NCBI GenBank assembly: GCA_951406725.2
Contig: OX597840.1
Span: 13,144,001-13,208,000 of the forward strand
From: Octopus vulgaris
Taxonomy: Eukaryota
Reading direction: 5' to 3'
DNA length: 64,000 nucleotides
Both the position numbers and the translations under genes were made by a program. Under the pieces are notes generated by a model, which saw only the letters and a program-made list of their open reading frames with translations, searched no databases and was not told where the DNA came from. Below are positions 3,580 through 52,739 of the stretch, in pieces; within the stretch, counting starts at the first letter, position 1; every line of letters begins with the position of its first letter.

Positions 3580-3633
3580 ATCACAGAACTGTTATTCAGA
3601 GTTTCATGTTTCTATTCTTCGGACGGTTGTGAT
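3580..3633 (-). ncRNA. Degenerate type I hammerhead motif (PLE pLTR remnant)
   Basis: RC reads atcacaaccgt-CCGAAGA-atagaaacat-GAAA-ctctgaa-TA-acagttctgtgat; same family as 49757-49800; core U->C change. Confidence 0.45.
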
Positions 3634-3635
3634 GT

Positions 3636-4015
3636 GACTGTGTGGTAAGTAGCTTGCTTACGAACCACATGGTTCCGGGTTCAATCCCACTGCGTGACAC
3701 CTTGGGTAAGTGTCTTCTGCATTAGCTGCGGGCCAACCAAAGCCTTGTGAGTGGATTTGGTAGACGGAAACTGAAAGAAGCCTGTCGTGTGTGTGTGTGT
3801 GTATGTATGTATCTGTGTTTGTCCCACCCCAACATCGCTTGACAACTGATGCTGGTGTGTTTACATCCCCATAACTTAGTGGTTTGGTAAAAGACACCGA
3901 TAAAATAAGTACTAGGCTTACAAAGAATAAGTCCTGGGGTCGATTTGCTCGACTAAAAGTGGTGCTCCAGCATGGCCACAGTCAAATGACTGAAACAAGT
4001 AAATGAGTAAAAGAG
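3636..4015 (+). mobile_element. SINE family A copy
   Basis: Head tgtgtggtaagtagcttgc...gggttcaatccc, body and tail as in other copies. Confidence 0.88.
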
Positions 4016-4021
4016 AGTGTG

Positions 4022-4083
<62 letters not shown>

Positions 4084-5857
4084 TATATGTAAAGCATGAT
4101 TTATTCATGATCAGAGTTGTTCAAAAGCCAAGGTACTGCTGAATATATATATACATATATATATATTTTGTGGCACTCTTTCGGTTACAACAATGAGGGT
4201 TCCAGTTGATCCGATCAATGGAACAGCCTGAGCATGAAATTAACATCAAATGGCTGAGCACTCCACAGATATGTATACCCTTAATGTAGTTCTCAGGGAA
4301 ATTCAGCATTTGATGTTAATTTGTGTGTGTGAATATTGAGCTCACAAATCATCCAAGCTTTGCCATCCCTCCAACCATGCCATTCCTTCCTGCAAAAACG
4401 AAGCTCTCATCACATAACATGAAGATAGAACCCTTTTGCTTCGACTGATTCTGCCTTGTTCAACATTATTCCGAAAGAAATTAACCATTTAGTATTCAGA
4501 TTATTCTGTCAAAAGTAATTCTTATTTAGTCACATTGTTTTGATTTAATCATGGCTTATCTCATAGCTTCGAGATTTCAATGATGTGATTGATTGTTTTT
4601 AGAATGACATTTTAGGGTACATGTGAGACGTCAGCTCTGGCTGGTCTGAACATAAAACGGGTGGAATATTTGGGCCAGATATGGCCGGTTTAGATGCTAA
4701 AGGTTTAAAGAACCTATGACATTTTATACCCCAATTTATTGGGTATAGCTTATTCCCTTTCCTATACCCAAATAATTTTAAGTTGTGCTTCACTAATATC
4801 CTCATTTTTTTTTGCTCTTGTTCTTTTTCTGCCCTTTCAAAAAGACAAACACACTGTACCTATTGTTAGCTGTTTCTTATATGTATTAACCCTCCCAACC
4901 ATTTAGACCCTCTGAAGAATCCTAGAGGCACATTCATTATCCAAACTTTATCTGCCCATCCCTGCAGAATACTGAGGAGATGGTGATGGCATGGAGGATT
5001 TTGTTGTCTCTTGGCAACTCACACACAATTATATGTGTGTGTAAATATATATATGTATATATATATATATACATACACATCAGATTGGAGCCTAGTGCAG
5101 CCATCTGGCTTGCCAGTCCTCAGTCAAACCGTCCAACCCATGCCAGCACAGAAAGCAGATGTTAAACGATGATGATGATATACACACACACTTATGCACA
5201 TATATATGCATGCATACACACACACACACATATATGTATGCATATATATATCCTTTATCTTTTACTTGTTACAGTCATTAGACTGTGGCCATACTGGGGC
5301 ACTAACCTGTGTAAAGCTAACACACACATACACCTTCACACATGTACATATACACCCCCATACACACATATACATACATGACAGGTTTCCTTACAGTTTC
5401 TCTCCCCAAATTCACTAACAAGGCATTGGTCATCGCAAGGTTCTAGAAGTCACTTCTCCAAGGTGCTGTGCAGTGAGATTGAACCTGAAGCCATATGGTT
5501 TCAAAGTGATCTTCTTAACCTCACAGCAATGCATGTGTCTATATATTTCTGATTTATTTCAGCAAAGAGCAACTCTTGACTTGAGTGCAAAAAACTGGAG
5601 CAACCACCAAAAAACACAGTGTCTGATCGATGCTCAACCAATTTCACTGGTTCACTGTCCTCAACCCTTGAAGAAAGAAAAGCAAAGGTGACCTTTGACC
5701 TTGGCAGGATTCGAATATATAATGCCAGGAGCTGGAAAAACTGCTGAATGGTAGCCTCGTTGGATGCTCTACCAATTCTGCAAGTCTGCTGCGCTGGGTT
5801 GGAGGCTAGTGCTTTATTTATCATTTCATGTTGACCCCCAGAGAAACGTATTTGGGT

Positions 5858-6145
5858 CACAACCGTACAGTTGTAGGTTCGATTCCTGGCAGTGCAATGT
5901 ATCCTTGAGCAAGACACTTTATTTCACGTTGCCTCAGTCCACTCAGCTGGCTAAAATGAGTAGTACCTGTAATACAAAGGGGCCAGTCTTGTCACACTCT
6001 GTATCACACTGAATCTCCCTGAGAACTAACTACATTATGGGTATACATGACTGTGGAGTACTCGACCACTTGCATGTTAATTTCATGAGCAGGATCTTCT
6101 GTTGATCGGATCAACTTGAACCCTCGTTGTCATAACGGATGGAGA
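5858..6145 (+). mobile_element. SINE family D copy (body ccttgagcaagacactttatttcac) with tail X
   Basis: Box B ggttcgattcc; body and tail shared with 18310-18790, 22140-22800, 48410-48720. Confidence 0.75.
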
Positions 6146-6446
6146 GCTGGGCCTGCTAACTCCAGGAGGATTAAAGACAAAGGTGACCTCTGGCATTGGT
6201 CTAATAGGGACACAGAATACAAGGAACTGAATTAAAGGTTGCAAAGCTTTTGCTCTCAGAATTCTGACACTTCTGCCTATTTGCTGTCTGAAGCAATAAC
6301 AACAACAACAACATCAGTAGCAGCAGCACTGGCATTTGCATGTAGTGATGGCTTGATCTGAGGCTAAACAATAACAACGACAACAACAACAACTAGAATA
6401 ACTACAGCAATAATAGCATCAGGCACAGGTGTGGCTGAGCAGTTAG

Positions 6447-7274
6447 CAGAGGAACCACTCCCTGCTCCCTCAATGGAGAGAGAGAAGGAGGAGGATGTCA
6501 AGGAGGTGGAAACCTCCTCGAAAAAATGAAAGCGAAGAACCCGAGAGCTGCGGGAGAAAAGGAGGACCTACTGGACACAGCAAGGGAACACCACCCTCCC
6601 ACAGCCCAAGGGAAAAAGAAAAGAAAAAAGAAAAACGGGACATTGCCGGCAGGTTGTGACACGCTGCCGGCGTGTCCCGATTCTCCTTTGGCAGGTCTGC
6701 TGCTGGAGGAGGAATTTTTGGTCCTCTTCCACAAGGGAGGAACCTTGCAAAATGAAATCCCAAAAATTGAAAGGAAGTGCCGGTGGGAGGGGCTTCTGTC
6801 CTACACGGAGGACCCTGAGTGGCCTACGCAGGTGGCTGCGGAGGTCTTATGGGAGAATGATCTATGGAAGATAACGAACTCCTTCCCGAAGGACTCCTTC
6901 AGATTTATGTTGAAACCTTTAAGTTCGGAACGGACCAGGTGCTTCGATGAAGCGAGGAGCCTGGCCGGGCGGAAAAAATTGAAGAGGTGTATTACCTCAA
7001 AAAGAGACTAAAAATGTAAAAAGTGAGAGGATTATTACCTCGTGTTTGTCTTTTATTTTAAATTTTGAACTGTGTAAGAGGTTTATTGCCTCATTGTGTT
7101 TTTAAAAAAAAAAGAAAAAAAGAACAATGTTTTAGAGAAGCGAAAGTCGGCGGGCACTTTTCGTCTTCTCCCGTCCTTATCATCCATATATCATCATCAT
7201 TCATCCCATTAATGTCTCTGTCTAGCTCTCAAGCTTATCTCTGTGTGCTGCCTTTGTGGCAAATTTAATGAAAT
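6447..7274 (+). other. GC-richer unidentified insertion with a 161-aa ORF (6526-7011), splitting the head of a family A SINE
   Basis: SINE head aggcacaggtgtggctg at 6421-6445 resumes as aagaagcttgcttc at ~7275; the insert is CpG-rich and non-repetitive. Confidence 0.55.
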
Positions 7275-50850: not shown

Positions 50851-51409
50851 GAGGTGAAACCTCAACCATCTTTCTTACATCTACAAATTGTGTAGAAGCA
50901 TGGTATAACACTCCTATATCACAAAATTACTATATGTGTGTATATATTTATGTATATGTGTGTGTTTGGATGGGTGGATATATTAAACTATATATGTGTG
51001 TGTACATGTGAGCATGTATATATGTATCTTTTGTCTCTTGTTTCAGTCATTAGACTGCGGCCATACTGGGGCATCTCCTTGAGGAATTTCAGTCAAAGGA
51101 ATTGACCCCAATACTTTTTTTTAAAGTCTAACATATATTCTGTCGGCCTCTTTTGCTGGCTCTCACATAGTGGTGGGGGACAAACACACACACACACACA
51201 CACACACATATGACAGGCTTCTTTTAGTTTCTATCTACCAAATCCATTAACAAGGCTTTGGTCGGACCAGGGCTATAGTAGAAGACATTGACCTAAAGTA
51301 CCATGCAGTGGGACTGAACCCAGAACCATATGACTGGGAAACAGGCTTCTTAATACAGTCATACCTGTGCCTCTTACCACACACACGTATATATATATGC
51401 ATATATATG

Positions 51410-51462
<53 letters not shown>

Positions 51463-51799
51463 GCATGTGTGTGTGTGTGTATATATATGTATATGTATGC
51501 ATACACACACAACTGACTATATATACCTACACCCCTGGAAAGAATTATACACATCACACCACTAAAGATGTCACACACTACGTTCTCACAGGAGCACTAC
51601 ACTTAATAATGCACGCTTTCCCCACAAACACTTCAAGATAATTCTTACCGGCGTCACAGTGTACCCAACCGAGGGACATAACTCCTAACCGAATCCCCTG
51701 GCCCTTATTCAGTTCACAACCTTTTTCACAGCAGCCACAAACCAGATGTGTTAATCTACCCCTGACTATAGAGAGCAGTTACCATATTTCTTTCCATAT

Positions 51800-51893
51800 C
51801 GGCTAACTCTGATGAGCGTAAGGTTATATAATTGGATTGTTACCTAACACTCCATTGTATTCCTTGTGTGAAACCAATTGGTAAGATTAGCTG
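51800..51893 (+). ncRNA. Type I hammerhead motif with a long stem II
   Basis: ggctaact-CTGATGA-gcgtaagg...ccttgtgt-GAAA-ccaattgg-TA-agattagct; stem I with one bulge, 10-nt palindrome ACCAATTGGT; predicted cleavage after A51883. Confidence 0.72.
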
Positions 51894-52318
51894 TGAGGAA
51901 CATATAATGTTGTCCACTTCGGATAATATACCCACTCTACTGATAGATACATGAGTGCATCTTTTCCCTGATGTTTTATTGTCGTCTATTGTGTTCTTGT
52001 TCCATTTTTTGAATTTATATAGCAGTATGTGTACACCAAATCCAGAACTACTTACCTCCCTTACACATAATCATTTTACTCAGGGACTAGTAGACCTGAC
52101 AGCATTTATTACTCAGTGTGCATTCAAAGCAATGATTAGTAATTTCACGAAACCAGTATGCTTTTGAATTTCTTTAACAATTCACAATAATGACTTTTAT
52201 TACTTTTATTCCTACTTCAGTTCATCTAATTGTATATATCTATTGATACTTTTCATAAAAAGCCTTTACTTTTTTGATTTCCAATGTGCATTTTCACTTA
52301 GTTTTCTTCTTACTTTCC

Positions 52319-52374
<56 letters not shown>

Positions 52375-52646
52375 GTATGTATGTATCATTAATTAAATAT
52401 ATTCTGTTAGAATATTATACACTGAATTTATAATGAGTGTTCTTTGTATAAAATGCCAAAAATATTAATACTATGAAGTATTTAGACATTAATACGAGCG
52501 ATTATATATACTGTATTTTGAAATAATAGCATGAAATTCAGTATCAAACAATTTCTCACAAAGATCTATATGTCTAAAATAGTATTGCATTAAAATATAC
52601 ATATAAATATATGAAACGTGACAGCTTAAAAATTTGTTAATCAATG

Positions 52647-52739
52647 CATGTTACAATCGTTTCACGAAAGTATTGTCATTATAATGGAATCCATTGTTGA
52701 TACACATTGATAGACAATACTTCTGCTCATCAGAGATGG
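52647..52739 (-). ncRNA. Type I hammerhead motif with a long stem II
   Basis: RC catct-CTGATGA-gcagaagtattgtc...gacaatactttcgt-GAAA-cgattg-TA-acatg. Confidence 0.65.

Follow-up and report, generated by a model that had tools for sequence, protein, structure and literature searches.

Why should one ion-channel gene of Octopus vulgaris hold a dozen or more hammerhead ribozyme motifs? The question comes from a first-pass annotation of 64 kb of the genome (OX597840.1:13,144,001-13,208,000, + strand, of a 2.8 Gb genome; hereafter the window), which listed 12 type I hammerheads and four decayed traces within a KCNH gene and suggested that they derive from Penelope-like elements (PLEs) or retrozymes. 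We conclude, with a probability of roughly 0.88, that the motifs are the hammerhead-bearing 3′ ends (pseudo-long terminal repeats, pLTRs) of 5′-truncated PLEs belonging to at least nine families, and that they are likely inert, neutrally decaying passengers of KCNH introns. The observed basis for this is the membership of the motifs in repeat families, the fixed 3′ and variable 5′ ends of the copies, frequent fold-backs, endonuclease sequence upstream in seven of the nine families, an intact hammerhead-open reading frame (ORF)-hammerhead unit in one family (G), and neutral decay.

Candidate motifs were scored with a descriptor requiring exact CUGANGA, GAAA and UH, stems I and II, and a palindromic stem III, with mismatches tolerated; since the palindrome is a requirement of the descriptor, it was weighed against shuffled sequence. 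Seven sites passed in the window, all among the 12 listed (cores 11872-, 12374+, 32270+, 33935+, 38649-, 51809+ and 52733-), compared with a mean of 0.05 (maximum 1) in 100 block-wise dinucleotide shuffles and none in the reversed window, so the predicted excess over shuffles was borne out. A strict version allowing no mismatch retained just three window sites, against 0.02-0.04 in shuffled sequence, and allowing one core mismatch added only 32661- and 43321-, the latter a probable chance match. A background sample of eighty 10-kb stretches at round coordinates (800 kb, with small contigs oversampled) contained 25 matches, against 0.33 after shuffling and none on reversal. A crude descriptor for split-core hammerheads, which makes a weak test, found none in the window.

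These comparisons refute the idea that the motifs are chance matches in AT-rich, repeat-rich DNA, as do the majority sequences of the repeat families, which restore the stems. In favor of chance are one trace (28437) that is not a hammerhead, one listed site that had been read at the wrong CTGATGA, and an Rfam scan with no hammerhead family among the matches listed (150 of 218); that scan was swamped by microsatellite matches and has low weight for minimal motifs. We regard the probability of a chance origin as negligible.

The five listed sites that fail the descriptor are damaged or variant members of hammerhead-bearing repeat families, so the call of 12 hammerheads stands in full for seven. 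All 12 fall into nine families (A-I), with no blastn match between families across the cores. The listed sites, the associated family A parts, and copies that had not been listed are as follows.

3589-3626, - strand: decayed hammerhead of an older family G subfamily; core CCGAAGA (U4C) at 3622, of a CCRN type common to seven other local matches, with a stem III mismatch
11786-12294, - strand: family A stump, with endonuclease C-terminus, tRNA-like segment, (AAT)n, hammerhead and tail
11831-11877, - strand: minimal type I hammerhead, family A; core 11872 intact, stem III palindrome decayed (scored descriptor)
11964-12039, - strand: tRNA-like segment of the family A 3′ untranslated region, with A-box and B-box-like motifs (read from sequence)
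12051-12296, - strand: C-terminal end of a Penelope/Poseidon-type GIY-YIG endonuclease frame (protein search, 3,809 first-look candidates)
12369-12414, + strand: minimal type I hammerhead, family A; core 12374, inverted partner of the 11872 copy (scored descriptor)
17532-18062, + strand: short form of family A, with tRNA-like head, long (AAT)n and a hammerhead whose core, 17974, is broken by G12A plus a deletion; inverted 3′ piece at 17474-17533 (homology)
32266-32300, + strand: minimal type I hammerhead, family B; core 32270 (scored descriptor); the family has 1,850 exact 35-mer matches
32608-32666, - strand: hammerhead, family F; core 32661, newly found (one-mismatch descriptor, homology)
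33510-33568, + strand: hammerhead, family F, at 33515; stem I mismatch, newly found (homology)
33714-33748, + strand: decayed member of family B2, in which the core reads CUGUNGA (A6U) (homology)
33931-34011, + strand: hammerhead, family C; core 33935, with a long stem II and, in this copy, a mutated stem I (scored descriptor)
38570-38653, - strand: hammerhead, family D; core 38649; longer copies have a Hydra-type endonuclease upstream (scored descriptor)
39910-39950, + strand: stump with a fold-back, from a further family and missing the 5′ strand of stem I; newly found
44991-45076, - strand: hammerhead, family E (Hydra-type); core 45070, with a 3-nt deletion at the core/stem II junction, these 3 nt being present in 17 of 20 aligned family E loci (homology)
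46187-46235, - strand: decayed hammerhead, family F; core 46230 reads CTGAATA, G8 changed; inverted 3′ half at 46400-46531 (the 46400+ copy newly found) (homology)
49753-49790, + strand: hammerhead, family G (young Hydra-clade element); intact core, 2-bp stem II, within fold-back 49702-49872
51801-51892, + strand: hammerhead, family H (Hydra-type); core 51809, best-preserved copy, predicted to form a three-way junction as a monomer (scored descriptor, fold prediction)
52647-52738, - strand: hammerhead, family I (Hydra-type); core 52733, inverted end piece upstream (scored descriptor)

The CTGATGA at 46245 was rejected as a core, since it only resembles the family F core, which lies 15 nt away at 46230. 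The four traces fared unevenly: 33718 is the decayed B2 copy, and 31080 and 57405 are plausible, with one homologous locus each. Trace 28437 was rejected as a hammerhead on the evidence of four homologous matches without a core; it lies in a repeat family with a palindromic core (28398-28590, +) whose homologues are coreless. The statement that most sites adjoin (TA)n or (AAT)n was confirmed, with 10 of the 12 within 200 nt of such a tract compared to 40% of background positions (p=0.003).

Majority sequences have an exact core in families A-F, H and I, and the stems pair using different sequences across the nine families. Within-family covariation is weak, as expected if copies decay after insertion: family H shows one G-C to A-U change (4 of 18 copies), a score equalled by 31 of 500 shuffles. 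Stem III, described initially as a loopless palindrome, is palindromic in every family and strictly loopless just in A and B, where its inner length is 2, compared with 6-8 elsewhere. The G10.1-C11.1 position in 30 background matches is G-C in 15 and G-U in 7; the pair is absent at the junction in family G. In families C and G (L141-L160, L276), a symmetric mismatch (A.A or A.G) lies at the stem II base and is retained across copies, and family F has an additional C preceding GAAA.

Each of the nine families is dispersed (244-3,585 first-look candidates for each of eight family DNA queries, and the 3,809 for the family A protein piece), copies within a family share a 3′ end 57-195 nt beyond the predicted cut and have staggered 5′ ends, and inverted partners or fold-backs are frequent. 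PLE coding sequence lies upstream in seven of the nine families, of Penelope/Poseidon type in A and of Hydra type in D-I, supporting a PLE derivation. The families had been called unrelated; nine are distinct, and that word does not suit the six with a Hydra-type endonuclease upstream. A retrozyme origin of the sites is not supported, given the PLE link of these seven families and the finding of no tandem array covering any listed site in the window.

In family A, a reverse transcriptase (RT) with DKG is followed by a GIY-YIG endonuclease at the C-terminus, directly upstream of the hammerhead region, with no Zn-finger linker; such frames were found at five loci (L029, L033, L035, L037 and L038), with a Pfam RVT_1 match. 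Longer copies of D, E, F and H have Hydra-type endonuclease remnants upstream, representing the endonuclease end only, and the link for family I comes from two loci, one interrupted by 700 nt. Family G is the most complete. It has 2,809 exact 32-mer matches, with a canonical core in most of the pattern matches listed, its copies terminate in (TA)n, and three of the seven regions fetched contain an uninterrupted frame of ~727 codons, two of them between hammerheads ~3.36 kb apart. The frame carries RWK, DKT, a CxCX5C linker, CxxC, CxH and, at its C-terminus, GIY-YIG. Because these motifs equal the Hydra signature given in PMC8557442, we assigned family G to the Hydra clade. Neither the family G frame nor two endonuclease frames had a Pfam match, while ESM Atlas placed frames of this set in HTH_animal and GIY-YIG clusters. 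Judged from its sequence, family G is probably a recently active Hydra-clade family. The frames lie at L276:5319-7499, L277:1762-3942 and L284:2677-4962, in tandem and inverted units.

Published PLE work suggests how such remnants could arise. The GIY-YIG endonuclease would nick a (TA)n or other AT-rich target (PMC11167929, PMC8557442), and reverse transcription would begin at a fixed internal site ~60-200 nt downstream of the hammerhead and mostly stop early, with fold-back, leaving insertions that retain little beyond the ribozyme. Two motifs within the tandem transcript of the parent element would pair via the palindromic stem III and cut slowly (PMC4209133), so that a lone intronic copy without a partner would rarely cut; in families where stem III encloses 6-8 nt, one motif by itself could form a hairpin of 2-3 bp. 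Only 1 of 127 alignments starts within 3 nt of the predicted cut, with no peak, and we therefore take most copies to be derived from uncut RNA.

The claim that all sites lie in one KCNH gene, with the sense copies in its pre-mRNA, was upheld by an exon in the window, flanking exons and spliced transcript contigs.

34128-34259, + strand: exon of an ERG-like KCNH channel, end of the PAS/PAC domain (match to the end of the ERG PAS domain)

This is the sole exon found within the window. Transcript contigs from three of four runs include it, spliced and with identical borders; the continuation shown for two exon-bearing contigs maps 21 kb past the window end. The previous exon lies ~21 kb upstream of the window, and further exons downstream encode S2-S3, S4-pore and the CNBD. 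Because the exon map places the neighboring exons outside both window ends, the window apart from 34128-34259 is + strand intron sequence of an ERG-like KCNH gene, spanning two long introns.

Could some sense copies cut KCNH pre-mRNA as monomers and alter splicing or output? The best candidate is 51809, which has a complete core, GUA at the cut site and all three stems in its minimum-energy fold (stems II and III at P ~0.75-0.95), and 33935 would cut 120 nt upstream of the KCNH splice acceptor. Yet the base pair closing stem I reaches P=0.09 in 51809 and 0.00 in 33935, a single minimal motif was inactive in PMC4209133 and dimers or an extended stem III had low activity, and the KCNH introns hold no close intact sense pair of the same family. 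Near 34007, transcript contigs end where the window copy has changes private to it, and contigs cannot reveal cleavage. Nor are the cores conserved: non-CpG divergence from the majority sequence was 68/941 (7.2%) in cores and 429/6,523 (6.6%) elsewhere (p=0.44), in 97 alignments from four families whose loci were picked by sequence outside the ribozyme (five family C alignments passed the coverage filter). There is also no strand bias, since the mapped KCNH gene contains six intact sense and three antisense copies, with sense not depleted. We consider monomer cutting of this pre-mRNA very improbable.

The density of motifs likewise does not single out this gene. The background matches comprise 15 in 590 kb of large contigs and 10 in 210 kb of small contigs, and extrapolate to ~70,000-90,000 intact-core motifs genome-wide, with variant families uncounted; the proposed large and diverse genomic population is supported. 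The window plus 200 kb of flank holds 12 in 264 kb, not above background (p=0.19). With density at background, no core conservation and no strand bias, a special tie to KCNH is not supported, and we find no evidence of a role for the hammerheads in this gene.

Several results weigh against the interpretation of the motifs as inert ends of truncated PLEs. Taken by itself, the window has a higher motif density than the 800-kb sample (7 in 64 kb, p=0.008), but it was chosen for its motifs; compared with small contigs, the difference has p=0.08. The neutrality test compared copies elsewhere in the genome, as opposed to KCNH intron copies across species. One copy, 51809, has a predicted monomer fold containing all three stems, the sole copy for which this holds. 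In families B and C, the shared sequence stops at a microsatellite ~70 and ~270 nt upstream, respectively, with no tie to a protein, and upstream walks found no ORF in the loci examined; by their sequence, both may be non-autonomous.

This last point bears on a broader alternative, that families B, B2 and C together with the short form of family A are non-autonomous elements, retrozyme monomers or SINE-like (short interspersed nuclear element-like) passengers copied by PLE enzymes, as opposed to truncated autonomous PLEs. The fixed 5′ edges of B and C argue for it, as do the missing ORFs (none was found for B2 either), and family A contributes further evidence. Its ORF-bearing copies have the tRNA-like segment and the (AAT)n between the stop codon and the hammerhead, making (AAT)n internal to the element. 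Of 30 copies picked by the tRNA-like head, 27 begin within ~20 nt upstream of it, and counts fall across the boundary from 1,992 matches for the head to 223 for the adjoining upstream 33-mer. ARAGORN (0 of 10 loci) and Rfam called no tRNA in the segment, whose A and B boxes were read by eye, and a T4 run is absent in the family A reference copy and present in 4 of 14 copies. A short hairpin sits immediately upstream of the head at 11964-12039 (-), 17532-17600 (+) and L365-L394. It could halt the RT without RNA polymerase III (Pol III); Pol III initiation at the head and RT stalling at the hairpin both fit the start sites. A microsatellite inside a 3′ untranslated region can also mask an ORF link, as (AAT)n does in family A, and the lack of tandem arrays over the window sites speaks against retrozyme monomers. 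We rate this alternative as a serious contender falling a little short of even odds; it would relabel some families and leave our verdict of PLE-derived, inert ends unchanged.

The core variants invite a more tentative idea. A 30-mer from family B2, for which no ORF was found, left open at positions 6 and 7, matches exactly at 15,487 places, of which 158 have A6; in the first 100 matches listed, U6 occurs in 96 and position 7 takes all four bases. Family G has a 2-bp stem II with a GNRA loop, and a U4C core in its older subfamilies. According to PMC3088659, a natural A6C hammerhead has low activity and U4C suffices in vivo. A literature search for A6U with hammerhead found nothing on point, though a paper on dimeric PLE hammerheads (RNA Biology 2016/2017) or the PMC4209133 supplements may list A6U or short-stem variants; a search for a PLE-borne tRNA SINE likewise found nothing on point. 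In this genome the PLE hammerhead might be partly freed from catalysis and kept as a structural signal, given the A6U family with its more than 15,000 near-identical copies and a Hydra family that has intact ORFs and combines a 2-bp stem II with U4C subfamilies; a Penelope/Poseidon element might in addition have acquired a tRNA-derived promoter for Pol III within its 3′ untranslated region, spawning a SINE copied by Penelope enzymes. We hold this combined proposal to be possible and somewhat doubtful.

Other repeats also occur in the window. A long interspersed nuclear element (LINE) reverse-transcriptase fragment with a PHD-like finger lies at 43661-44545 (-; Pfam RVT_1) and is presumably RTE-like. 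We take 1700-2023 (-), 61038-61328 (-) and 61608-61904 (-) to be restriction-like endonuclease ends resembling R4/Dong LINEs, and 19378-19809 (-), 31435-31752 and 58447-58839 to be decayed mariner-like transposase fragments. An ~80-nt near-perfect inverted repeat at 11223-11302 had sub-threshold Rfam matches, and two identical 140-nt tandem copies at 36606-36888 could reflect a recent duplication or an artefact of assembly.

Minimal hammerheads in PLE ends have been described before, with many families per genome and mostly single copies from truncated PLEs (PMC4209133). The octopus motifs resemble them in these respects and in type I order, palindromic stem III, long stem II, short stem I, an extra base after A9 in several families, and inverted pairs 100-700 bp apart. 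They differ in coming from another animal, in a stem II spanning up to 63 nt, in the A6U and U4C variants, and in the A.A or A.G at the stem II base of C and G. For the Hydra clade, Craig et al. 2021 (PMC8557442, file S2) reported a hammerhead with palindromic stem III near the 3′ end of Hydra-1_oBim, and that paper describes RWK, DKT, CxCX5C, CxxC, CxH, a (TA)n target and a 3′ hammerhead, as found here. The window set, whose likeness to Hydra-1_Obim was judged by eye, differs in including at least six distinct Hydra-type families, and family G forms tandem or inverted units with pLTRs and intact frames. Family A shares DKG, the order of RT then GIY-YIG, the lack of a Zn-finger linker, a pLTR hammerhead and a fixed 3′ end with the Penelope/Poseidon clade as represented by PAc in Frangieh et al. 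2024 (PMC11167929); it departs from PAc in that a tRNA-like segment, at which most copies start, and (AAT)n separate the stop codon from the hammerhead.

Metazoan non-LTR (long terminal repeat) retrozymes, as described in PMC7229834 and bioRxiv 10.64898/2026.07.22.740005, are similarly type I, non-coding, PLE-related and present in thousands of copies, including a coral with >6,000 hammerhead motifs in 16 families (PMC7229834). In retrozymes the units are repeated in tandem and most hammerheads are canonical, whereas the octopus window sites are solitary or inverted. In schistosome SINE-like elements (PMC6765202), a Pol III promoter is followed by a hammerhead, an order resembling that of putative promoter and hammerhead in the family A short form; unlike them, family A has its head and tail also in ORF-bearing PLE copies, and the short form is non-tandem in the window. 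In an octopus repeat annotation from 2026, 31 Penelope-like families are listed as recently active, and the word 'ribozyme' appears nowhere in the main text (PMC13282606). A literature search for hammerhead and octopus returned no dedicated paper among the matches listed. The phenomenon has already been reported from many animals, an octopus Hydra element included, and is largely known; the octopus adds another animal whose PLE-derived hammerheads number in the tens of thousands, for which an inventory would be useful but unsurprising. Its families are also test material for whether PLE hammerheads must cut at all, since the cores of sister families are variously canonical, A6U or U4C and one family has intact coding frames, which permits a direct test.

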